DNA of 28,621 nucleotides. Source: a virus (taxonomy: Duplodnaviria; Heunggongvirae; Uroviricota; Caudoviricetes). The number at the start of each line of letters is the position of its first letter. The first letter of the stretch is position 1. A program made the position numbers and the translations under genes. Of the stretch, positions 1,659 through 26,986 are shown piece by piece. Below the pieces are notes generated by a model. The model made no database searches. It saw only the letters and a program-made list of their open reading frames with translations, and was not told the origin of the DNA. The stretch lies in the IMG/VR virus record IMGVR_UViG_2939147180_000004; one strand, 5' to 3'.

Positions 1659-4130
1659 TTAAGAATCAGCCTGACTCGGGATCAGTTTTTGCCAGATAAC
1701 TGAAACGTATTTTGCCTGGTAACGGGCGTCATCAAGTGCATTATGGCGCTCACCTTCGAATGGAATAGCCGTTCTGGCATCGAAGTCTATGGCTTTCCCC
1801 AGCTCAACGATTGTGCGTACATCGCGATCGTTGTAGTAACGCCACGGGCAGGGGATCCCCTGCCGTTCGTATGAACGGCGCAAAATCGTGTTGTCGAAGT
1901 TGGCTCCATTTCCCCAAACCTGAACAAAAAATTCACCGGAGTTTTCGTCGATAAATTCCCGCAATTGTAACAGTGCATCATCTAACGGGATTTCATCGGT
2001 CATAATGGCAGATTGCGCTTCGCGTGATTGCTTAAGCCACCATTTAATGGTGTTCCGATCAATGACTCCGCCAGCAGTTTCCAGATCGATAGTCTTACTA
2101 AATTCCGGTCCCATATCTCCGGTTTGCGGATCGAAAAATATTGCACCTATTGAGATGATCGGGGCATCAGGATTTTTTCCCATGGTTTCAAGGTCGATCA
2201 TTAGATGGTCACACGTCCTGCTGGTGGATGTGATTTCGTGATGACCGTTCACCTTAATTGAGTGATCTGCCGTCTCGCCAGTTTCATTATCGCTATTGTG
2301 ATGCTGATTGCCGCCAGTGTTCTCCTTGTGTGGATGTTCAGCGCCTTCCATTTCCTCCGGATCATCTTCCTGAACTTCAACCTGATATTCTTCATCGAAT
2401 GTTTCTTGATATGTTGCGTCGCCCATCACCGCGCCACAATCAGGGCAGTTGCCGCCGCCGGTCTGACCGCAGGCGGTGCAGACTTTTTCCACTTCCTGTT
2501 GCGCCACTGGTTCAGGCTGTTTCGTTTCTGGCTCGTTTTGTAACGCATTTGTGCTGTTTTGTTCCGCTTTTTGGTAGTTCCGTTCCGATTCATGCTGGTT
2601 CTGGTTCACAGAATCGCGGGTCTGGATCCCCTTAACCCATTTCGGATCATTCGGGTCACTAATCCCTTCAACAAATTCACCACGTGATGCAGCAAGCAAC
2701 TTATCGGCGTCAGGCTGGCTGATATTGGCTGCCTGCATAATTTTGTTTACTTCGTCAGCGGTAACTTTTATCGGCTCTGGTTGTTCTGAATCTTCAGCGG
2801 TATCTACATTTTGCGGTAAGCCCGTGTATGTGCCATTTTTTCGGGCAAAATATTCTTCTTTTGTGATTTCAGTGGCGCCAGCAGCCAGTGCCTTATCCAG
2901 ACCAGAAAGTTTGTTTGCGCGACCGTATTTTTCTCCGTCCTTATCTGCGAAGAGGAAATAGAACGGCCCCTCACGCTCTACAGATGGTTCAGCTTCCGGC
3001 GCGGTTTCATTTTTTGGGATATCAGATACCTCAGTTTCCACTGCATCAGTTTGTGTTTCTGATGACTGGAGAACATCAACAGTGCCCAGGTCTGTTTCTT
3101 CATTCTCAAACACGCCCTTTGTCGTCAGGTATTCGCAGATATATTTGTTCAGTGCTATGGGATCTTTGTGAATGTCGATCGGACGCTCACGGACAAGGCC
3201 AAAAATAGTCTGGCGGTCGTAGCGAAGGGCATCAGGCTGTTTGCGCATTGATGCCGAGATACGCTTCCAGTCTTCGCGGTCGTTGTCGATAACTTCTTTT
3301 TTTGCCCAGCGATGGATGCTGCCGTCAATGTTTCCGGCATCCACATCACCAGGCCAGAGAGCGTAGGCCAGTTCGTCATCCAGTGTTTTCCATGTCTGCT
3401 TGTATTCGCGATGAATGGCAGCAATGACCGGGCTGATTTTTCCTGTTGAATTTTCAGTGTACTGTTGATTGGCTCTGGCGCGGGCGAGATCAACAACAGA
3501 CGTGTATTTTCCGGTTTCCTTGCGTTCACCTTCGCGACGTTTTTTCCAGATGCGCATCTCTGCCTGAATTTCGGGCCATTTAGCACCAGGAATACATTTA
3601 TGCTTAACCCACCCAATGGCGTGCAACTTAAGCTCCGGATACATGGCGTTAACTTCTGGCATTTTCATCAACGCTTCAACGATATGTCCGTCGAATGTTG
3701 CCATGTCTTCCTGCAACAATTCCTGTGCGCTAATAACCATATCAACGGTGATGTTTTCACATGTGTCGAACTTAACCATGACAGCGTTCTGTACTTCAGG
3801 GGCCAGCTTGTCAAAAGTGACGTTCATCGGATCGGATTCAGTCTCAACCGGGACAAAAGAAGCAGACTCCTCATCCCAGCGGTTTTCCTGCATATATTCA
3901 GCATCCCATGAATCGAGGGCAGGGCGGGGTATGCCAGGTTTATCCTCGCAGACAATAAATTTATAAGCGCAGTCCTGAGCAGCCGGATAATGTTCCAGGA
4001 ACTGCCAGTGAAATTTTGCTCGAGCACGGCGTTCGTCGCCAGCTTCAATGGCTGTGGCTACAGCCACAGCGCCTTCTTCCCTTGTTGCCAGTTCGTCAGG
4101 AATAGCGGCGCAAATAAAGACTTTACTCAT
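1659..4130 (-). CDS. Phage exonuclease, 823 aa: RecE-like acidic/zinc-ribbon linker with a C-terminal DnaQ-like DEDDh 3'-5' exonuclease domain
   Basis: C-terminal motifs LMIDLETMG (Exo I), VWGNGANFD (Exo II) and HNALDDARY (Exo III, DEDDh). Central segment KLLAASRGEFVEGISDPNDPKWVKG...CTACGQTGGGNCPDCGAV...EDDPEEMEG matches my recollection of the Rac RecE linker. RBS GAGG upstream of the ATG at 4130. Confidence 0.75.
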   Translation of the reverse strand: MSKVFICAAIPDELATREEGAVAVATAIEAGDERRARAKFHWQFLEHYPAAQDCAYKFIVCEDKPGIPRPALDSWDAEYMQENRWDEESASFVPVETESDPMNVTFDKLAPEVQNAVMVKFDTCENITVDMVISAQELLQEDMATFDGHIVEALMKMPEVNAMYPELKLHAIGWVKHKCIPGAKWPEIQAEMRIWKKRREGERKETGKYTSVVDLARARANQQYTENSTGKISPVIAAIHREYKQTWKTLDDELAYALWPGDVDAGNIDGSIHRWAKKEVIDNDREDWKRISASMRKQPDALRYDRQTIFGLVRERPIDIHKDPIALNKYICEYLTTKGVFENEETDLGTVDVLQSSETQTDAVETEVSDIPKNETAPEAEPSVEREGPFYFLFADKDGEKYGRANKLSGLDKALAAGATEITKEEYFARKNGTYTGLPQNVDTAEDSEQPEPIKVTADEVNKIMQAANISQPDADKLLAASRGEFVEGISDPNDPKWVKGIQTRDSVNQNQHESERNYQKAEQNSTNALQNEPETKQPEPVAQQEVEKVCTACGQTGGGNCPDCGAVMGDATYQETFDEEYQVEVQEDDPEEMEGAEHPHKENTGGNQHHNSDNETGETADHSIKVNGHHEITSTSRTCDHLMIDLETMGKNPDAPIISIGAIFFDPQTGDMGPEFSKTIDLETAGGVIDRNTIKWWLKQSREAQSAIMTDEIPLDDALLQLREFIDENSGEFFVQVWGNGANFDNTILRRSYERQGIPCPWRYYNDRDVRTIVELGKAIDFDARTAIPFEGERHNALDDARYQAKYVSVIWQKLIPSQADS

Positions 4131-7317: not shown

Positions 7318-7644
7318 GTGTTGATTTCAGGTCATGAGGTAATTTTAAGGAGGACTTGTGGCAAAAGTTTTTACACAGGAAGAGCGGGAAAAAATTAAAG
7401 AGCAGGTGGTCGAACTTGTGCGCCAGAGCGGTCGCGAGACATTACGACAGTTGGAAGCTAAAACAGGTGCGACAAGATATCTGATGAGCATTCTTGCCAG
7501 AGAGCTGGTTGCCAGTGGTTATGTATACAACTCCGGCTACGGGTTATTCCCGTCTGAACAGGCACGAAAGGACTGGCAAAATGCCCGCAAAAAACTCTCT
7601 AGGGCGAAGGTGAAGAAACCCGCTGTGGTTGATTGGATTTGCCC

Positions 7645-8550
7645 CTATATTTCCAGACATCTGTTATCACTTAACCCATTACAAGCCCGCTGCCGCAGAT
7701 ATTCCCGTGGCGAGCGATAACCCAGCGCACTATGCGGATGCCATTCGTTATAATGCTCGAACGCCTCTGCAAGGTTCTTTGCTGCCGTTAACCCGTCTGG
7801 TTTGGGCATGATACTGATGTAGTCACGCTTTATCGTTTTCACGAAGCTCTCTGCTATTCCGTTACTCTCCGGACTCCGCACCGCCGTGTTCTTCGGTTCA
7901 AGTCCCAACATCCGGGCGAACTGGCGTGTTTCATTAGCCCGGTAGCATGAACCATTATCCGTCAGCCACTCCACTGGAGACGACGGAAGATCGTTGCCGA
8001 AGCGGCGTTCCACCGCTCCCAGCATGACGTCCTGTACTGTTTCACTGTTGAAGCCGCCGGTAGTGACCGCCCAGTGCAGTGCCTCACGATCACAGCAGTC
8101 CAGCGCGAACGTGACACGCAGTCTCTCTCCGTTATCACAGCAGAACTCGAACCCGTCAGAGCACCATCGCTGATTGCTTTCTTTCACGGCCACTCTGCCT
8201 GTATGTGCCCGTTTCGATGGCGGTACAGCAGGTTTTCGCTCAAGCAACAGCGCATTCTGGCGCATGATCCGGTAAACACGTTTGGCATTGATCGCAGGCA
8301 TACCATCAAGTTCTGCCTGTCTGCGAAGCAGCGCCCATACCCGACGATAACCATACGTGGGCAGCTCTCCGATAACATGGTGTATACGGAGAAGCACATC
8401 CGTATCATCAGTGTGACGACTGCGGCGGCCATCCATCCAGTCATCGGTTCGTCTGAGAATGACGTGCAACTGCGCACGCGACACCCGGAGACAACGGCTG
8501 ACTAAGCTTACTCCCCATCCCCGGGCAATAAGGGCGCGTGCGCTATCCAC
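7645..8550 (-). CDS. insD: IS2 transposase OrfB (InsD, 301 aa, DDE integrase-like)
   Basis: ORF 7645..8550 overlapping insC in the -1 frame; recognised as the IS2 InsD sequence. Confidence 0.9.
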
Positions 8551-8873
8551 TTTTTTGCCCGTCCATATTCAACGGCTTCTTTGAGGAGTTCATTTTCCAT
8601 CGTTTTCTTGCCGAGCAGGCGCTGGAGTTCTTTAATCTGCTTCATGGCGGCAGCAAGTTCAGAGGCAGGAACAACCTGTTCTCCGGCGGCGACAGCAGTA
8701 AGACTTCCTTCCTGGTATTGCTTACGCCAGAGAAATAACTGGCTGGCTGCTACACCATGTTGCCGGGCAACGAGGGAGACCGTCATCCCCGGTTCAAAGC
8801 TCTGCTGAACAATTGCGATCTTTTCCTGTGTGGTACGCCGTCTGCGTTTCTCCGGCCCTAAGACATCAATCAT
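8508..8873 (-). CDS. insC: IS2 transposase OrfA (InsC, 121 aa)
   Basis: [40 protein letters not shown]... (HTH); internal ATG of ORF 8508..8918; ends near the A6G slippery site used for the InsCD frameshift. Confidence 0.9.
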
Positions 8874-9273
8874 CTGTTCTCCAATGACTAGTCTAAAAAC
8901 TAGTATTAAGACTATCACTTATTTAAGTGATATTGGTTGTCTGGAGATTCAGGGGGCCAGTCTATTGATCCGGACCTTATCTGGTCACTACCTGATGGAG
9001 AAATACGTCGCTACGACAGTCGTCTAAACATAATCTGTCGCGAGTGCCGGAAGAGCGAAGTTATGCAGCGCATACTGGCATTTTATCAGTGAAATTTTCG
9101 TTATTTATAGACGTAACTAGATTAAAGAGCATTAGTTCAGATGTGAATTGACATTTTCACGGCACAGGATTGAGCTAGCGTGGTTGTCTGCTTTGCGTCA
9201 AAAGCAGATATTACCAGATTTAGACATCTATTCCCGATAGCCCTGCTCTGATGCCACACTCTGTGCTATTTTC

Positions 9274-9735
9274 ATGACCCCAATAAAAATATTTATGACT
9301 ATTGCTGATTTCAAACGGCCTAAATTGGAGCTCCCAAACGGGGCAAACAAACTACTACTGCACTCTTGCTGTGCTCCATGTTCCGGTGAAGTGATGGAGG
9401 CGCTTCAGGCCTCGGGAATCGACTATACCATCTTTTTCTACAACCCGAACATTCATCCTCAGAAAGAGTATTTAATTCGTAAGGATGAGAATATTCGCTT
9501 TGCTGAACAACACGGCGTGCCATTTATTGATGCTGATTACGACACAGACAACTGGTTTGAACGTGCCAAAGGAATGGAATGGGAACCCGAGAGGGGGATC
9601 CGTTGTACCATGTGTTTTGACATGCGTTTTGAGCGGACAGCGCTGTACGCTGCTGAAAATGGTTTCAGTGTGATCAGCAGTTCACTGGGCATTTCACGCT
9701 GGAAAAATATGCAGCAGGTTACCGTCACTGGATAA
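9274..9735 (+). CDS. DUF208 / QueH-like protein (epoxyqueuosine reductase family homologue), 153 aa, possibly shortened at the C-terminus
   Basis: Motif [12 protein letters not shown] plus ...[13 protein letters not shown]... and ...[14 protein letters not shown]... match my recollection of the QueH (DUF208) Cys-rich signature. No good RBS at either candidate start. Confidence 0.55.
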
Positions 9736-9810
9736 TCTCAGTCAGATTGCCTTACTCCGAACGCCCACCGCGTCCGTCCCGTACATTCCAGCAACGCATC
9801 TGGAGGTAAC

Positions 9811-10860
9811 GTGCGGGTATTACTTCAACCTGTTCTGGTACCGGAACTCGGGCTGGTGGTCGTTAAGCCGGGCCGTGAATCCATGCCGGTATTCCACAAT
9901 ACCCGGGTACTGGTGGAGCCGGAACCGAAAAGCATGCGTAATCTGCCGTCCGGGGTCGTTCCTGCCGTTCGCCAGCCGCTGGTGGAAGACAAAACATTGC
10001 TGCCGTTTTTCAGTAACGCACGGGTAATTCGTGCTGCTGGTGGTGCTGGTGCATTGTCTGACTGGCTGTTGCGCCATATTAAATCCTGCCAGTGGCCACA
10101 CGGCGATTATCATCACAGCGAAACCGTTATTCACCGTTATGGTACCGGCGCAATGGTGTTGTGCTGGCACTGCGACAACCAGCTGCGTGACCAGACATCC
10201 GAATCACTCGAGCAACTTGCTCATCAAAACCTGTCAGCATGGATGATTGACGTCATCGGTCACGCAATAAGCGGTACGCAGGAGCGTGAATTATCTCTGG
10301 CTGAATTATCCTGGTGGGCGGTCCGCAATCAGGTGGCGGACGCGCTACCGGAAGTGGTATTACGTCGCTCGCTGGGATTACCAGCGGAAAAAAACTGCTC
10401 GGTGTACCGCGAAAGCGACATCGTACCGGGAGAGCAGACCGCCACCAGCATATTGAAACAGCGCACAAAAAATCTTGCACCGTTGCCTCACGCCCACCAG
10501 CAACAAAACCCATCACAGGAAAAGACGGTGGTAAGCATCACCGTTGATCCAGAGTCTCCGGAATCTTTCATGAAGCTGCCTAAACGTCACCGTTGGGTTA
10601 AGGAGAAATACACACGCTGGGTTAAGACACAGCCGTGTGCTTGCTGCGGTATGCCAGCCGACGATCCGCATCATCTGATTGGTCACGGGCAGGGCGGAAT
10701 GGGAACCAAAGCACATGATCTCTTTGTGTTGCCTTTGTGCAGAAAGCATCACGACGAGTTGCATACGGATACCGTGGCATTTGAAGAGAAGTATGGCTCC
10801 CAACTGGAGCTGATTTTTCGATTTATCGATCGCGCGCTGGCAATTGGTGTGCTGGCCTAA
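9811..10860 (+). CDS. DUF968-family prophage protein (YdfU-like, 349 aa) with C-terminal HNH-like Cys/His motif
   Basis: GTG start at 9811 with GGAGGT RBS 4 nt upstream; C-terminus ...[43 protein letters not shown]. Sits directly upstream of Q, where lambdoid phages carry nin-region genes. Confidence 0.7.
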
Positions 10861-10877
10861 TTTTGTGGAGTAAGTTG

Positions 10878-11255
10878 ATGCGTGATATTCAGATGGTTCT
10901 TGAGCGTTGGGGGGCATGGGCGGCTAATAATCATGAAGATGTGACCTGGTCGTCCATTGCCGCCGGTTTTAAGGGATTAATTCCTTCAAAAGTAAGATCT
11001 CGTCCGCAATGCTGTGACGATGACGCGATGATCATTTGTGAATGTATGGCTCGCCTGAAAAAAAACAACAGCGATTTACATGATTTATTGGTGGACTATT
11101 ATGTCGGCGGCATGACTTTTATGGCGCTTGCACGTAAGCATGGGCGATCTGATTGTTGGGTTGGCAGGATGCTCCAGAAAGCTGAGGGCGTAGTGGAGGG
11201 CATGCTGATGGTGTTGGATCTCCGATTGGAGATGGATGCTGATTGTTCGAAATAA
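10878..11255 (+). CDS. Q: Late-gene antiterminator Q (QuuD/phage-82-type), 125 aa
   Basis: [33 protein letters not shown]...[32 protein letters not shown] matches my recollection of E. coli DLP12 QuuD. ATG 10878 with GGAG RBS 7 nt upstream. Confidence 0.85.
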
Positions 11256-11354
11256 TTAAAGGAAAAGTTGCTGTCTGATTTTCATTAGTCTAACATTTTA
11301 AATGTTGGAATCGCAACGTAGTTATTATCATATAACAGCTTGTTTCCTGATTTA
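11256..11354 (+). promoter_or_regulatory. Probable late promoter (pR'-like) / Q-utilisation region
   Basis: About 100 bp between the Q stop and a strong terminator. Candidate hexamers TTGCTG (11268..11273), 17-bp spacer, TAACAT (11291..11296); an alternative TTGGAA is at 11305. Exact hexamers uncertain. Confidence 0.3.
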
Positions 11355-11383
11355 GCCAGCCTCCCCAAAGGCTGGTTTTTTTC
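11355..11383 (+). terminator. Rho-independent terminator (tR'-like) downstream of Q
   Basis: Stem CCAGCCT / AGGCTGG (11356..11362 and 11369..11375) with CCCCAA loop, followed by T8. Confidence 0.6.
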
Positions 11384-11410
11384 TAATAAGTATCATTTCG
11401 GGTGGGGATT

Positions 11411-11935
11411 TTATTGTTTAACCCATAATAGTTCATTGACATTGAATCCCAACTTTTGAGCGGTACGCACATAGTCTGCTTTTACATTATCTGGAATAGT
11501 TTGGGTCCTTGCCAGAATCCATAGGTATTCTCTGTTCGGACCACTGACAAGAGCATACTTATACTCATCATCCAGTTTGATTACATTATAGCCACCATAG
11601 AAGGGGCCAAAAAACGAAACTTTCAACGCTGCAGTTTTAGTATCTCCAGTAAAGTATGCTTTACCTTCGCTCTCGCTCCATTTGTTTTTCGTTGGATCGT
11701 ATCCACGGTTAAGTACGCGAATCCCTCCGTCGTTCCGTTTTTCATAAGTAGCGCTGACCTGTTCCAGACCACGTTCGAACCAGTTCTCGAGGCGAGCTAT
11801 TTCATACCATTTTCCGAGGTAGCGGTTGGCGTCAAAATTTGTAATCGGCTGCACACCTTTAGGTGGTGTCGGGGCCTTACATGCTATAAGAGTGAAAGAG
11901 AGTGCAATGCCAGTCAACACAGGCCATAACTTCAT
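11411..11935 (-). CDS. Outer-membrane lipocalin lipoprotein (Blc-like), 174 aa
   Basis: Lipoprotein signal with lipobox LIAC; ...FDANRYLGKWYEIARLENWFERGLEQVSATY...KVSFFGPFYGGYNVI...YLWILART... closely parallels E. coli Blc. AGGA RBS 8 nt upstream. Confidence 0.8.
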   Translation of the reverse strand: MKLWPVLTGIALSFTLIACKAPTPPKGVQPITNFDANRYLGKWYEIARLENWFERGLEQVSATYEKRNDGGIRVLNRGYDPTKNKWSESEGKAYFTGDTKTAALKVSFFGPFYGGYNVIKLDDEYKYALVSGPNREYLWILARTQTIPDNVKADYVRTAQKLGFNVNELLWVKQ

Positions 11936-12127
11936 AATAAATCCTGTACTTTTGATAGTTGAGAGTAAGTATGAAAGATAGATGAGTACGACCGATCACT
12001 TAAAGAACTTTCCTACTATATTAGGAATAGTCAATAACAGAAAAATTGTCAGTGATGAAGCCAGAAAGGCAATTTAGTCCGTGCACTACAAAGTTTATGT
12101 GTTAATGAATTAGTCAAGGGGGAGGAA

Positions 12128-13087
12128 ATGATAAAAAAACCTGTGATTGGGATCAGCGGTTGTTTGGGCGGTTCTGCTGTTCGTTTTGATGGTGGTCACA
12201 AAAGAGATGACTTTTTAATGGACAAATTAGTGGAATGGGTAACATTCAGACCAGTATGTCCGGAAATGGCTATAGGGCTGCCAGTTCCGCGTCCTGCTCT
12301 ACGACTTGTGCGCTCGAAGCAAGGAAATATACGGATGTGTTTCAGCCACGACCAGAATGAGGATGTGACAGAGAGAATGACAGAGTTTAGTCGTTCTTAT
12401 ATGGACAAATTAAAGGATGTATCGGGGTTTGTGGTTTGTGCTAAATCTCCCAGCTGTGGCATGGAGCGCGTGCGTGTCTATGATGAAAATGGTAATCGAG
12501 GTCGTAAAGATGGAGTGGGACTATTTACGAGCACTTTGATGGAAAAGTTTTCCTGGCTACCGGTTGAAGAGGATGGGCGATTACATGATCCAGTGCTTCG
12601 TGAGAATTTTATTGAAAGAGTTTTTGCTTTGCATGAGCTCAATCACCTTTACAAGGAGAAATTATCAAGAAGAGAGTTATTAGCTTTTCATAGTCGTTAT
12701 AAGCTTCAGTTGTTGGCGCATAGCCAGGCAGGCTATAAAGATATGGGACCATTTGTGGCTGCAATACACGAGTGGGCGGACCTTGAATCATACTTTGAGG
12801 TGTATCGTGATAATCTGATGGCGATTCTCAGAAAACCAGCATCACGTAAAAATCACACGAATGTGCTGATGCATATACAGGGGTATTTTAGTAATTACTT
12901 AAGTACACGCCAGCGTAAAGAGTTGAGCGAGGTTATACTTAACTATCGCTTTGGCACATTGCCTCTTCTTGCGCCGTTGACTCTGCTGAAGCATTATCTG
13001 GGTGAGTATCCTAATGATTACTTGCTTACACAGAATTACTTCGATCCCTATCCGGAAGAACTGGCTCTAAGACTGATGGTGAATTAA
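12128..13087 (+). CDS. DUF523 (TudS-like Fe-S desulfidase fold) - DUF1722 fusion protein, 319 aa
   Basis: N-terminus VIGISGCLGGSAVRFDGGHKRD...CPEMAIGLPVPRP...KSPSCG fits DUF523; the C-terminal half resembles YbgA-type DUF1722. Strong RBS GGGGGAGG upstream. Confidence 0.65.
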   Translation: MIKKPVIGISGCLGGSAVRFDGGHKRDDFLMDKLVEWVTFRPVCPEMAIGLPVPRPALRLVRSKQGNIRMCFSHDQNEDVTERMTEFSRSYMDKLKDVSGFVVCAKSPSCGMERVRVYDENGNRGRKDGVGLFTSTLMEKFSWLPVEEDGRLHDPVLRENFIERVFALHELNHLYKEKLSRRELLAFHSRYKLQLLAHSQAGYKDMGPFVAAIHEWADLESYFEVYRDNLMAILRKPASRKNHTNVLMHIQGYFSNYLSTRQRKELSEVILNYRFGTLPLLAPLTLLKHYLGEYPNDYLLTQNYFDPYPEELALRLMVN

Positions 13088-13493
13088 CTGTATGCGATAT
13101 CATCTGAAAGTGATGAGTTCCTGTATGCAGGATATTTACAATCGTAAAAACTACGCTATGATGCTCATAGTGTCAGTTTTTATAAAAATCCTGTTCACGC
13201 TAAAGAAAACATTGAGATGCAATTTAATGTTGGTAAACATACCAGCCCCAAAAGATTTTATTCAATCTGTTTTTATATGAAGATATTTCAAGTGAATATA
13301 AAGAGCATATAATATTATTATTGCACGCAGCTATTATAATATAACAGATTAGTTTAATGATTTGTTTTTTGTGAGTTAAACACATGGTTTTATAGTTGTG
13401 ATGCAATGAGATTTTCCTTATTGTTGAACTGGCGAATATTGATTTTCCACCTATACTTACCTGGTGTAACCCCAATGATATCAGGTGGATAAT

Positions 13494-14207
13494 ATGCCAT
13501 ACATATGTTCTATCATTTTGGTGTTGAACTCGTTTGGTGTCCGAATTGGTAAAGAAGATATTTTGTTTAAAAAAGGAAATGCTGTCCTCATTGAATACAA
13601 TTTAAAAGATCTTTTTTCGTCAAATACAGATCATCTAATGATCGTAGATATTGAGGAGAAAACAGTTAATGATTTCTTTAAAAACTACACACTCTCACCT
13701 TTTTCTGTAAGAAGGTTTTATCCGTCATACTTGATAGTAGAATGTGAAGATTTTTCATTGTTAAGGAACTTGGTTGCATGCTTGAATTGTGATAGCAAAA
13801 CCGTGGATGTAGTTAGAAATCAAATATCACTTGCATGTCTTGCTGTCTTATCTTCAGAGAAAATAGTGCAAAGTTTTTTGTTCGGAAGTCTTAATAGCTT
13901 AGGTTGTAAAGTTAAGGCTATTATTCACTCGGATATCTCAGCGTCATGGAGACTTTGTGATATATCTTCAAGATTATATATGAGCGAGAGTTTGTTAAAA
14001 AGAAAATTAAAAGACGAAGGATTATCGTTTAGTAAATTAATTCTTGAAGAACGAATGATGATGGCGCAAAGATTATTGATCTACAGTAACCATACTGTCG
14101 GCAAGGTGGCGGGAATATGCGGGTATGACAATGCATCATATTTTGTAAGTGTTTTTAGAGGATATTTTGGTGTGCCTCCGCACCAATATTTATCAAGATT
14201 TTCTTAG
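13494..14207 (+). CDS. AraC/XylS-family transcriptional regulator (AppY/GadX-like), 237 aa
   Basis: C-terminal AraC-type HTH (...VGKVAGICGYDNASYFVSVFRGYFGVPPHQY); N-terminus resembles AppY; AGGTGG RBS 5 nt upstream of ATG 13494; sits in an A+T-rich segment. Confidence 0.8.
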   Translation: MPYICSIILVLNSFGVRIGKEDILFKKGNAVLIEYNLKDLFSSNTDHLMIVDIEEKTVNDFFKNYTLSPFSVRRFYPSYLIVECEDFSLLRNLVACLNCDSKTVDVVRNQISLACLAVLSSEKIVQSFLFGSLNSLGCKVKAIIHSDISASWRLCDISSRLYMSESLLKRKLKDEGLSFSKLILEERMMMAQRLLIYSNHTVGKVAGICGYDNASYFVSVFRGYFGVPPHQYLSRFS

Positions 14208-22660: not shown

Positions 22661-25498
22661 ATGGCAGTACGGATTTCAGGTGTACTGAAAGATGGCGCAG
22701 GTAAGCCGATACAAAACTGCACCATTCAGCTAAAGGCCAGGCGCAACAGCACCACGGTGGTGGTGAACACAGTGGCCTCAGAAAACCCGGATGAAGCCGG
22801 GCGTTATAGCATGGACGTTGAGTACGGTCAGTACAGCGTTATTCTGTTGGTGGAAGGCTTCCCGCCATCGCATGCCGGGACCATCACCGTGTATGAAGAC
22901 TCACAACCGGGTACGCTGAATGATTTTCTCGGTGCCATGACGGAGGATGATGTCCGTCCGGAGGCACTGCGCCGCTTTGAACTGATGGTGGAAGAGGTGG
23001 CGCGTAACGCGTCCGCAGTGGCACAGAACACGGCAGCCGCGAAGAAGTCAGCCAGTGATGCCCGCACATCAGCCCGTGAGGCGGCAACCCATGCGACTGA
23101 TGCTGCGGACTCCGCACGCGCAGCCAGCACGTCAGCCGGACAGGCCGCGTCGTCGGCTCAGTCAGCGTCTTCCAGCGCAGGAACGGCATCAACAAAGGCT
23201 ACTGAAGCATCAAAAAGTGCTGCCGCTGCAGAGTCTTCAAAAAGCGCGGCAGCCACCAGTGCCGGTGCAGCGAAAACGTCAGAAACGAATGCCGCAGCAT
23301 CACAAAAATCTGCGGCCACTTCTGCATCCACCGCGACCACGAAAGCGTCAGAAGCTGCCACCTCAGCCCGGGATGCGTCGGCTTCAAAAGTGGCGGCAAA
23401 ATCATCAGAAACGAGCGCAGCCTCGAGCGCCGGCAGTGCAGCTTCCTCGGCAACGGCGGCAGGAAATTCCGCGAAGGCCGCAAAAACGTCTGAGATGAAT
23501 GCGGATAACAGCGCACAGGCGGCAGCAGACTCACAAACTGCATCGGCAAATTCCGCGACAGCAGCCAAAAAATCAGAAACCAACGCGAAAAATAGTGAGT
23601 CAGCAGCAAAGGTCAGCGAAACCAACGCTAAAGCGTCAGAGAACAAGGCGAAAGAATATCTCGACAAGGTCGGGGGACTCGTCAGCCCGATGACGCAATA
23701 CGATTGGCCCGTTGTTACTGGTAATGAGTCTTTTTACATAAAGATCGCGAAACTTTCCGATCCCGGAAGCAACAATTGCCATGTAACGCTAATGGTTACT
23801 AACGGCGGTGACTACGGCTCCCCTTACGGAAACATTGACTTTATCGAGATCTCGGCGCGCGGTCTGCCTTCTTCGCTTACTGCTGATAATGTATCTCGTT
23901 ACCTGAGTATACGCCGTTTAGGGCCAACCGGGCTAATCAATAGCATGCAAATGCGTTACGGCCTGGTTAAAGATGATGGCTTTATTGAGGTTTGGGCCTT
24001 CCAGCGTGCATTTATCAACGGCGCAAAGGTTGCGGTACTGGCGCAGACGGCACGCACGGAATTATACATTCCAGACGGATTTGTTAAGCAAACCGCCGCG
24101 CCTTCTGGATATGTTGAAAGCCCCGTTGTAAGGATTTACGACCAGTTAAACAAGCCGACTAAAGCAGATTTGGGTCTTTCTAATGCTATGCTTACAGGCG
24201 CTTTCGGTCTTGGCGGTAGCGGGATATCAACAAACGGCAAGATGAGCGATGTAGAGATCTTAAAAGCTCTGCGTGACAAAGGTGGTCATTTCTGGCGCGG
24301 TGATAAGCCGACCGGAAGCACGGCGACCATTTATAGCCACGGTTCTGGTATATTCTCGCGGTGCGGCGATACGTGGTCAGCGATCAATATCGACTACTCA
24401 ACCGCGAAGATTAAGATCTATGCCGGCAACGATGCCCGGCTTAACAACGGGACTTTTAGCGTCAATGAGCTATACGGCTCGGCAAACAAGCCGTCGAAAT
24501 CGGATGTTGGACTTGGCAACGTAACGAACGATGCGCAGGTAAAAAAAACCGGCGATACAATGACCTGTGACTTGACAATCAAAAAAGGTACACCGTCAGT
24601 CTTCCTGCGGGCAGACAGTGGAGTCACCGCTTTGCGGTTTTATACTGGCGATAACACAGAGCGCGGCATAATCTATGCTGGTCCTAACACTGATTCGCTT
24701 GGCGAAGTTCGCATCAGGGCAAAGACAGCAGGGGGGACATCAGGAGGGGATCTTGTTGTTCGTCACGACGGGAGGGTTGAAGTCCGTGATCTCACAGTAG
24801 CGTATAAAATTAAAAGCAGAACGATTGAGATTGCAAATACCGACACTGACTCATCGGCAACTACGCTCAGCATCTATGGAGTACAGCACACGCCGTTGGT
24901 TTTAACGCGTTCTGGTTCTTCTGAAAATGTGTCCATTGGGTTTAAGTTAGACAACATGAACCCAAAGTATCTTGGAATTGATACTAATGGGGATCTGGCT
25001 TTTGGTGAGAGTCCTGATCAGAAACAAAACAGCAAATTGATCACGCAAGCGAAACTCGACAAGGGATTAACGATTGGTGGTCAACTGGCTTTCAAAGGTA
25101 CGACAGCGTTTTCAGCCGTTGCTACGTTCAGTGCCGGGATAGCAGGAGCCATCGAGCCGGAAAACATTGACGGCCAGACGGTTAATCTTAACAACCTGAC
25201 CATCATCAAGTCAGATGCCGGGGCAGTTAAATACTATATTTGTCCATCCTCTGCAGGTGGTGCAAATATTACCAATAAGCCTGACGGCATAGCCGGTAAC
25301 TTTTTGCTCCGTGTAGAGTCGACTCGTAAGGTTAGGGATTCAGATTATGCGAACATGCAAACGCTGATTAACAGCGACACAAAACGTATATACGTTCGCT
25401 TTGTTGTTAATGGAAACTGGACAGCGTGGAGTCAGGTTGTTGTTTCCGGATGGAATCAGGATATAACTGTCAGGTCGTTAACTAGACTGGCCCCCTGA
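22661..25498 (+). pseudogene. stf: Side tail fibre protein (lambda Stf-like), N-terminal about 940 codons; reading frame ends inside an IS2 fragment
   Basis: N-terminus MAVRISGVLKDGAGKPIQNCTIQLKARRNSTTVVVNT... and the Ala/Ser/Thr-rich repeat region match my recollection of lambda Stf. The last 5 codons and the stop (25483..25498) are IS2-derived. Confidence 0.85.
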
Positions 25499-25613
25499 AT
25501 CTCCAGACAACCAATATCACTTAAATAAGTGATAGTCTTAATACTAGTTTTTAGACTAGTCATTGGAGAACAGATGATTGATGTCTTAGGGCCGGAGAAA
25601 CGCAGACGGCGTA
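25483..25613 (+). mobile_element. Solo 131-bp fragment of the IS2 left end (IRL through the insC start region)
   Basis: 131 bp identical to positions 1-131 of the full IS2 copy at 25656..25786; the match ends abruptly (GTA|AGTAAGA versus GTA|CCACACA). Confidence 0.85.
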
Positions 25614-25746
25614 AGTAAGATGCTGTCGCTAAAAAATTTCTTTAGCGGAGCTGAGTAGACTGGCCCCCTGAATCTCCAGACAACCAATATCACTTAAATA
25701 AGTGATAGTCTTAATACTAGTTTTTAGACTAGTCATTGGAGAACAG

Positions 25747-26112
25747 ATGATTGATGTCTTAGGGCCGGAGAAACGCAGACGGCGTACCACACAGGAAAAG
25801 ATCGCAATTGTTCAGCAGAGCTTTGAACCGGGGATGACGGTCTCCCTCGTTGCCCGGCAACATGGTGTAGCAGCCAGCCAGTTATTTCTCTGGCGTAAGC
25901 AATACCAGGAAGGAAGTCTTACTGCTGTCGCCGCCGGAGAACAGGTTGTTCCTGCCTCTGAACTTGCTGCCGCCATGAAGCAGATTAAAGAACTCCAGCG
26001 CCTGCTCGGCAAGAAAACGATGGAAAATGAACTCCTCAAAGAAGCCGTTGAATATGGACGGGCAAAAAAGTGGATAGCGCACGCGCCCTTATTGCCCGGG
26101 GATGGGGAGTAA
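25747..26112 (+). CDS. insC: IS2 transposase OrfA (InsC, 121 aa)
   Basis: Identical protein to copy 1; the A6G slippery heptamer AAAAAAG (26064..26070) lies in the insC/insD overlap. Confidence 0.9.
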
Positions 26113-26975
26113 GCTTAGTCAGCCGTTGTCTCCGGGTGTCGCGTGCGCAGTTGCACGTCATTCTCAGACGAACCGATGACTGGATGGATGGCCGCCGCAG
26201 TCGTCACACTGATGATACGGATGTGCTTCTCCGTATACACCATGTTATCGGAGAGCTGCCCACGTATGGTTATCGTCGGGTATGGGCGCTGCTTCGCAGA
26301 CAGGCAGAACTTGATGGTATGCCTGCGATCAATGCCAAACGTGTTTACCGGATCATGCGCCAGAATGCGCTGTTGCTTGAGCGAAAACCTGCTGTACCGC
26401 CATCGAAACGGGCACATACAGGCAGAGTGGCCGTGAAAGAAAGCAATCAGCGATGGTGCTCTGACGGGTTCGAGTTCTGCTGTGATAACGGAGAGAGACT
26501 GCGTGTCACGTTCGCGCTGGACTGCTGTGATCGTGAGGCACTGCACTGGGCGGTCACTACCGGCGGCTTCAACAGTGAAACAGTACAGGACGTCATGCTG
26601 GGAGCGGTGGAACGCCGCTTCGGCAACGATCTTCCGTCGTCTCCAGTGGAGTGGCTGACGGATAATGGTTCATGCTACCGGGCTAATGAAACACGCCAGT
26701 TCGCCCGGATGTTGGGACTTGAACCGAAGAACACGGCGGTGCGGAGTCCGGAGAGTAACGGAATAGCAGAGAGCTTCGTGAAAACGATAAAGCGTGACTA
26801 CATCAGTATCATGCCCAAACCAGACGGGTTAACGGCAGCAAAGAACCTTGCAGAGGCGTTCGAGCATTATAACGAATGGCATCCGCATAGTGCGCTGGGT
26901 TATCGCTCGCCACGGGAATATCTGCGGCAGCGGGCTTGTAATGGGTTAAGTGATAACAGATGTCTGGAAATATAG
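26070..26975 (+). CDS. insD: IS2 transposase OrfB (InsD, 301 aa)
   Basis: Identical protein to copy 1; -1 frame relative to insC. Confidence 0.9.
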
Positions 26976-26986
26976 GGGCAAATCCA

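Follow-up and report, generated by a model that had tools for sequence, protein, structure and literature searches.

The closest characterized relatives of the larger of the two genes considered here are the RudS proteins, TudS-DUF1722 fusions that act as tRNA 4-thiouridine (s4U) desulfidases (Jamontas et al., Nucleic Acids Res 2024, PMC11417400). Cluster cysteines in RudS homologs, and residues E51, R60, S111 and S113 in RudS_KT, were mutated in that study and most of the substitutions were inactivating; overexpression of RudS_KT also shortened the growth delay induced by UVA (PMC11417400). One member of the family, RudS_vir (gp66, H3V29_gp66), comes from Escherichia phage 1H12 and reduced the s4U content of tRNA in E. 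coli (PMC11417400). Its activity on tRNA, set against its protein level, was the weakest in the study, and on free 4-thiouracil it had the shortest lag (PMC11417400), so tRNA may not be its sole substrate. E. coli itself was stated to have no RudS or TudS homolog (PMC11417400), which is true for K-12, yet rudS DNA occurs in 1,135 of 5,426 complete E. coli genomes (21%) and is near-full-length in 1,063 of these.

The window, the whole stretch of 28,621 nucleotides analyzed here, is a decayed, cryptic lambdoid prophage of the Qin type in E. coli. It adjoins ynfA/rspAB, has lost its immunity region by deletion, and retains terminase and tail genes in truncated form. Its cargo includes two independent passenger genes from enterobacterial chromosomes, and we have high confidence in the overall reading, in which a Qin-type prophage carries a dead QueH remnant and an intact RudS that are unrelated to each other as passengers. 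The sequence-only reading had described such genes as unusual cargo. On the contrary, among complete E. coli genomes about 18% have QueH and 21% have rudS, and PHROGs contains a family for each gene, in both cases listed as 'unknown function'. The finding is correct but ordinary, since both genes are common, already annotated and unlinked. Both are already named in RefSeq, and for the window itself the significance is small, as one of the genes no longer works and the other encodes almost the same protein as one characterized in 2024. The wider picture is modestly useful: it provides the frequency of rudS in E. coli, documents QueH in phages, bears on the PHROG entries of unknown function, and turns the part of RudS in UV-triggered induction into a testable question.

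The intact gene (12128..13087, plus strand) encodes a protein of 319 residues that is preceded by a strong ribosome-binding site, AAGGGGGAGGAA. The amino-terminal part is a TudS [4Fe-4S] desulfidase domain (residues 7-149; 2-thiour_desulf, TudS/DUF523, PF04463, E 5.8e-40, profile positions 1-141 of 141), and the carboxy-terminal part is a DUF1722 tRNA-binding domain (residues 192-309; PF08349, E 9.4e-40, positions 1-117 of 117). The call of a TudS-like DUF523-DUF1722 fusion had been made earlier from the motifs GISGCLGG, VRFDGG, CPE..GLP and KSPSCG, all of which are found in the 319-residue frame, and both full-length profile matches bear it out. The fusion is that of the RudS family as published in 2024, where a 92%-identical phage copy was assayed. 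Judged by its sequence, then, 12128..13087 is a member of the RudS family of tRNA 4-thiouridine desulfidases.

The window protein has the same length as RudS_vir and is identical to it at 293 of 319 positions (92%) without gaps, the remaining 26 being substitutions. The cluster cysteines Cys12, Cys44 and Cys110 (numbered as in Table 1 of PMC11417400) are all there, as are the catalytic residues E46, R55, S107 and S109, whose equivalence to E51, R60, S111 and S113 of RudS_KT follows from a constant offset to the cluster cysteines. RudS_vir has the same cysteines and the same catalytic Glu, Arg and two Ser. Over the whole gene, dN/dS relative to the 1H12 copy is 0.14. From the identity to RudS_vir, the catalytic residues and the dN/dS ratio, we infer that the window copy is probably active. 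Its TudS domain would hold a [4Fe-4S] cluster on Cys12, Cys44 and Cys110 and, together with Glu46, Arg55, Ser107 and Ser109, would swap the sulfur of s4U8 in tRNA for oxygen by hydrolysis, while the DUF1722 domain would hold the tRNA during desulfidation.

The surroundings of rudS are those of a lambdoid late region. Upstream lie a ydfU-type DUF968 protein, an HNH-like component of the nin-region backbone located between QueH and rudS (9811..10860, plus strand; DUF968 E 6.8e-77; phrog_96, HNH endonuclease), and the late-gene antiterminator Q (10863..11255, plus strand; Phage_antitermQ E 8e-51). Downstream of Q, a pattern scan detects an intrinsic terminator (11354..11385, plus strand) composed of GCCAGCC, a loop, GGCUGG and a U run, and the RNA of 11262-11395 folds at -34.2 kcal/mol (z -4.2). 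By its position, this terminator is a candidate for tR', which Q-modified polymerase would read through to rudS and the lysis genes. There follow, on the minus strand, a Blc-like outer-membrane lipocalin lipoprotein (11411..11935; Lipocalin_2 E 7.5e-43; NCBIfam Blc subfamily, 312.6 bits against a cut-off of 267), which is the divergent partner of rudS across a spacer of 192 bp, and, after rudS, an AraC-family regulator that is the third member of the cargo block between Q and holin (13485..14207, plus strand; HTH_18 E 3.1e-16; 33% GC). The regulator is YdeO-like, although its score against the NCBIfam YdeO model (112 bits) lies under the cut-off of 348. The gene order is thus Q, terminator, blc, rudS, AraC-family gene and holin, and rudS would be transcribed with the late operon, from pR', after antitermination by Q.

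The functional phage 1H12 has the same late-region order, with Q, a minus-strand lipocalin, rudS, a further gene and holin. Unlike the viable 1H12, however, the window copy sits in a defective Qin-type prophage. The position between Q/pR'-tR' and the lysis genes, and the Q-antitermination logic expected from it, are also those of the Stx-type moron slot of lambdoid phages, but the window cargo contains no toxin and consists instead of an eraser of a tRNA modification, accompanied by a lipocalin and a regulator. On the chromosomes of other Enterobacteriaceae, the same divergent pairing of lipocalin and rudS is found in clusters of the order lipocalin, MlrA-like MerR regulator and rudS, with protein identities of up to 74%; these include STM1389 of Salmonella LT2 (ORF319, RudS_ST). 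The occurrence of this order in sister genera, with the same lipocalin upstream of rudS, points to a chromosomal origin of the phage cassette. The cassette differs from the chromosomal clusters in having lost the MerR-type regulator between lipocalin and rudS, in being placed behind Q/tR', and in being followed by the AraC-family gene.

The late-operon position suggests that RudS blunts the growth arrest that results from near-UV crosslinking of tRNA. Sunlight or UV, acting through the SOS response, is the typical trigger of prophage induction, and placement of rudS behind Q/tR' implies that the enzyme would be made exactly upon induction. RudS would then strip s4U8 from host tRNA, so that the near-UV s4U8-C13 crosslink and the ensuing stringent-type arrest could not throttle late protein synthesis; the presumed benefit would lie in the removal of a near-UV photosensor, which would leave translation running. 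That RudS is in this way a true phage function made at induction, rather than a passive passenger, and that prophages render the tRNA epitranscriptome of E. coli strain-variable, is a tentative proposal that we think rather unlikely to hold in full. If it is true, about a fifth of E. coli strains gain an s4U eraser, and about a fifth gain a cobalamin (B12)-independent completion of queuosine. The prophage in the window is defective, so late-operon expression may never happen in its host strain.

A different role would be the salvage or detoxification of free thiolated pyrimidines, such as 4-thiouracil and the s4UMP that arises from tRNA turnover, as carried out by stand-alone TudS. Such a role agrees with the behavior of RudS_vir, which gave the shortest 4-thiouracil lag in a uracil auxotroph and desulfidated tRNA less than expected from its protein level (PMC11417400), and TudS enzymes recycle s4UMP (PMC10611767). 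RudS_vir nonetheless reduced tRNA s4U in vivo, and TudS supported growth of the auxotroph to a degree that no RudS reached (PMC11417400). In addition, the DUF1722 domain of the window protein is complete and conserved, as seen in its full-length profile match (1-117/117) and the whole-gene dN/dS of 0.14. We therefore consider it improbable that salvage is the main function of the phage enzyme. Action on s4U of tRNA is the preferred reading of RudS, and it is the surviving part of an earlier idea that the two genes manipulate tRNA or DNA modification or serve counter-defense: RudS does belong to a family that acts on a modified tRNA base, whereas DNA modification and counter-defense find no support, there being no PADLOC matches.

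The second gene belongs to the QueH family. QueH is an Fe-S epoxyqueuosine reductase that completes queuosine in tRNA. It is a cobamide-independent alternative to QueG (PMC6461909), and all 22 genomes checked had QueG, with or without QueH; for the host genes queG, thiI and ybgA, a near E. coli genome and its relatives served as stand-ins for the window's own assembly. Chromosomal members of the QueH family, at 74-87% identity, occur in 47 of 151 Enterobacteriaceae genera, and QueH DNA occurs in 994 of the 5,426 complete E. coli genomes (about 18%). Intact alleles, 221 residues long, occur in HannyBb, a viable phage, as well as in further E. coli prophages. With dN/dS values of 0.05-0.09, the intact prophage alleles are under strong purifying selection, and lysogens carrying them could presumably convert epoxyqueuosine to queuosine without B12, beside the host QueG. 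This occurrence of intact QueH, both in HannyBb and in roughly 18% of E. coli genomes, contrasts with a 2019 survey in which QueA, QueG and QueH were absent from the viruses analyzed there. The HannyBb sequence also contains many ORFs of about 100 bp labeled 'hypothetical', which are not tRNAs.

The two enzymes had been singled out as nucleobase-processing homologs carried by one prophage, and their distribution speaks against a system. QueH occupies the nin region and rudS the interval between Q/tR' and holin, two different mosaic slots that are 2.4-3.9 kb apart with backbone genes between them. The intact QueH-to-RudS arrangement is found in fewer than about 94 of the 5,426 genomes, as bracketed from a spread listing at an 80% coverage threshold and three sampled contexts, compared with 994 carriers of QueH and 1,135 of RudS. 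When three QueH prophages belonging to other allele classes were sampled, rudS was missing from each of them. Phage 1H12 carries rudS but no QueH within the region that was examined; HannyBb carries QueH but no rudS. The small number of shared prophages argues against a functional pair, and the different slots and seldom joint travel make their meeting in one prophage a coincidence.

A coordinated module for host tRNA modification (queuosine and s4U), DNA modification or counter-defense is accordingly largely refuted by the distribution, and we regard it as very unlikely. It could draw on the action of both enzymes on modified bases, on their sharing a prophage here and in PSS-11-type relatives, and on the defense cargo (an R-M system and a KwaB-like protein) that fills the slot beside QueH in other prophages. 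Set against these are the distribution above, the dead QueH copy of the window, and the PADLOC defense families, which gave no match for QueH or RudS, nor for the lipocalin, the AraC-family protein or DUF968. The defense reading was dropped on the PADLOC result. Phage tRNA genes near QueH, a possible reason for tRNA-modifying cargo, were sought and none were found in the window and three further sequences examined.

The independent-passenger reading includes the death of the window's own QueH copy (9295..9735, plus strand). The open frame runs from an upstream ATG at 9274 (9274..9735; 153 residues, with the motif RCTMC), exactly where the sequence-only reading had placed it, but the conserved start is probably the ATG at 9295, given how RefSeq annotates the identical locus and how the homologs align. 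The earlier assignment to QueH/DUF208 is confirmed by PF02677 (E 3.1e-46, 158 bits against a cut-off of 23.5), and so is the suspected truncation: the match covers profile positions 1-126 of 175 only, with the last 49 positions absent, and RefSeq labels the identical locus a pseudogene, 'incomplete; missing C-terminus'. Codons 1-142 are authentic and are followed by four out-of-frame codons and TAA. Comparison with intact loci locates the cause at 9720/9721, a junction formed by deletion or illegitimate recombination with a 2-bp microhomology at the join. Sequence to its left is 98% like the prophage of strain 50EVA, and sequence to its right is 99.6% like that of strain PSS-11. Relative to PSS-11, 1,730 bp are missing (the 3' end of QueH, hokD, rem and the 5' part of a small ORF), and relative to 50EVA about 3.4 kb.

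About 72 carboxy-terminal codons of QueH were lost at this junction. Among 32 residues invariant in 22 full-length homologs, the remnant lacks seven (K165, Y182, Q184, Y186, C187, G188 and C189). Six invariant cysteines (CC, CxxC and CGC) are, by their invariance, candidate metal ligands; four are kept, and C187 and C189 are gone, a loss of putative cluster residues of the kind that had been named beforehand as counting against this gene. In the solved structure of Thermotoga maritima QueH (PDB 7LC5), the amino-terminal two thirds align with the window copy, including the invariant His-x-Cys-Cys-Ala-Pro and Arg-Cys-x-x-Cys, whereas the carboxy-terminal residues, about 72 in number, with the invariant Cys-Gly-Cys to which the lost C187-G-C189 corresponds, have no counterpart. 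Since the junction took away the carboxy-terminal third, the copy is, on sequence grounds, a non-functional remnant, a pseudogene. That the 153-residue frame is instead a naturally short, functional variant is scarcely credible: it is open, retains four invariant cysteines and has no extra decay, but its ending consists of codons made by the junction itself, the last 49 profile positions and the seven invariant residues are missing, and partial QueH loci are rare in E. coli (about 9 of 994). The QueH fragment differs from the 50EVA allele by one synonymous change over 423 nt, and this absence of further decay is consistent with a recent deletion.

The window, a cryptic lambdoid prophage of the Qin type from E. 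coli, is 99.98% identical across 25.3 kb to the locus beside ynfA/rspAB in strain w264. That locus contains, in order, integrase, exonuclease, dicB, a deleted immunity region, an O-like gene, a DUF977 gene, the stretch considered here, a lysis cassette of the phage-21 type, and terminase and tail genes that are truncated; these truncations and the lost immunity region indicate that the prophage is defective. The two open reading frames singled out by the sequence-only reading were found in the window with every motif quoted for them: the ORF at 9274..9735 belongs to the QueH family (Pfam PF02677, E 3.1e-46), and the ORF at 12128..13087 combines a 2-thiouracil desulfurase/TudS domain (PF04463, E 5.8e-40) with DUF1722 (PF08349, E 9.4e-40). 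The genes between them are a ydfU gene (DUF968/HNH-like), antiterminator Q and, on the minus strand, a lipocalin resembling Blc. The observation is thus confirmed, and its interpretation holds in part. The locus, ordinary and previously annotated, contains one dead gene and a close allele of a published enzyme. Both proteins have PHROG families (3217 for QueH, 3275 for RudS), still labelled 'unknown function'.

On sequence grounds, the 319-aa protein encoded at 12128..13087 is RudS. In an ungapped alignment it shares 293 of 319 residues with gp66 of Escherichia phage 1H12, which is the RudS_vir of Jamontas et al. 2024 (PMC11417400). TudS-DUF1722 fusions strip 4-thiouridine (s4U) from tRNA in vivo and in vitro; RudS_vir expressed in E. 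coli reduces tRNA s4U, and overexpression of RudS_KT reduces UVA-induced growth delay (PMC11417400). Most variants substituted at the cluster cysteines of RudS homologues, or at E51, R60, S111 and S113 of RudS_KT, are inactive (PMC11417400). The window protein has C12, C44, C110, E46, R55, S107 and S109, and its gene has a strong ribosome-binding site and a dN/dS of 0.14 relative to 1H12. The direct PDB match to TudS 6Z92 is weak (E 8e-4), and the same cysteines align. E. coli has been described as lacking TudS/RudS homologues (Jamontas et al. 2024, PMC11417400); this is true for K-12, yet rudS DNA occurs in 1135 of 5426 complete E. coli genomes, and a BL21(DE3) derivative carries a 147-bp remnant.

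A site resembling a promoter and a clear-cut intrinsic terminator (11354-11385) lie downstream of Q; next come the minus-strand lipocalin, rudS, an AraC-family gene and, last, the holin. Phage 1H12, which is viable, shares this gene order, so that, judging by position, its late transcript must cross rudS before reaching the lysis genes. Sister genera carry rudS on the chromosome, behind a gene for an MlrA-like MerR regulator; the same lipocalin lies still further upstream, on the opposite strand. The phage cassette contains the same genes but lacks the MerR-type regulator. Mechanistically, our best guess is that RudS, made in a Q-dependent manner, would erase s4U at tRNA position 8, a near-UV photosensor, and that translation would consequently go on during UV-triggered induction. 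A salvage role for phage RudS stays alive as a minor rival, since RudS_vir shows relatively low activity on tRNA and does relatively well with free 4-thiouracil (PMC11417400). The AraC-family gene (13485-14207), which accompanies the lipocalin-rudS pair in the Q-to-holin slot, has a GC content of 33%, much lower than that of the DNA around it; among NCBIfam models YdeO fits it best, with a score far short of the cut-off.

The QueH ORF of the window, in turn, is a pseudogene. Its suspected truncation is borne out by a Pfam alignment that ends at profile position 126 of 175, by a junction at 9720/9721 in comparison with intact loci, and by the RefSeq label of the identical locus ('epoxyqueuosine reductase QueH, incomplete, missing C-terminus'). 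Left of the junction the sequence is 98% like the 50EVA prophage and 94% like that of PSS-11; to the right it is 99.6% like PSS-11. Relative to PSS-11, 1730 bp are gone (the 3' part of QueH, hokD, rem and the beginning of a small ORF), and relative to 50EVA about 3.4 kb. The join has only 2 bp of microhomology, and past it the QueH frame reads four foreign codons, then TAA. We aligned 22 full-length QueH proteins, among them the T. maritima enzyme of solved structure; they are 33-99% identical to the 221-aa form found in prophages and have 32 invariant positions in common, six of them cysteines (C25, C26, C104, C107, C187 and C189). The fragment retains four of the six; K165, Y182, Q184, Y186, C187, G188 and C189 are absent, a loss that, by the standard set in the sequence-only reading itself, refutes the Fe-S enzyme reading for this gene. 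A single synonymous change in 423 nt from the 50EVA allele indicates that the deletion is recent, and partial copies occur in only about 9 of the 994 E. coli genomes with QueH.

Those 994 are among 5426 complete genomes, and QueH is nearly always a 221-aa gene immediately after the DUF977 gene. Allele pairs have a dN/dS of 0.05-0.09, so intact prophage QueH is maintained. Its protein is 74-87% identical to QueH of 47 of 151 Enterobacteriaceae genera, tiny endosymbiont genomes included, and by this resemblance its gene looks to be a housekeeping gene that was captured. QueG is present in all 22 genomes checked, QueH carriers or not, so carrying both reductases is common in Enterobacteriaceae; in one QueH-bearing genome the queG match is interrupted by stop codons. 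As QueH has been described as the cobamide-independent alternative to QueG (PMC6461909), the benefit to a lysogen is likely B12-independent completion of queuosine. Of the genomes compared, the one nearest to the window has two copies of intact prophage QueH at separate chromosomal sites (C1:823753-824415 and C1:2718415-2719077), both 100% identical to the query protein. Among 50,697 phage records, HannyBb (PP925841), a viable phage, is the only genuine lambdoid phage with prophage-type QueH, which is intact (3380-4066), 99.5% identical and annotated 'hypothetical protein'; Hutinet et al., in their 2019 survey, reported neither QueA nor QueG nor QueH for the viruses analysed (PMC6884629).

QueH and RudS are not a functional pair: carriers number 994 and 1135, respectively; when the ranking for the full QueH-to-rudS span is sampled along its length, QueH is already missing from the record at about rank 94; in three QueH prophages sampled from other allele classes, the Q-to-holin slot is filled differently (a DNA methyltransferase, cspF/cspB, tRNA genes); and, in the regions examined, 1H12 has rudS without QueH and HannyBb QueH without rudS. 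PADLOC defence families gave no match for QueH, RudS or any neighbour tested.

Elsewhere among E. coli prophages, defence-type cargo occupies the slot right behind QueH: an NgoMIV-type restriction enzyme and C5 methyltransferase in O157:H7 strain Z563 (7851-9861 of its prophage locus) and a KwaB-like protein in 50EVA (7875-9514 of the 50EVA locus). QueH adjoins a cargo-swap hotspot, which may account for the deletion in the window. Just upstream of QueH in the window, an IS2 copy (7634-8964) interrupts the DUF977 ('ren-like') gene, whose halves RefSeq annotates separately in the identical locus. A 131-bp piece identical to one IS2 end (25483-25613) adjoins the 3' end of a 945-aa tail-fibre ORF (22661..25498), 42 bp upstream of a second full IS2 (25656-26986) in the same orientation.
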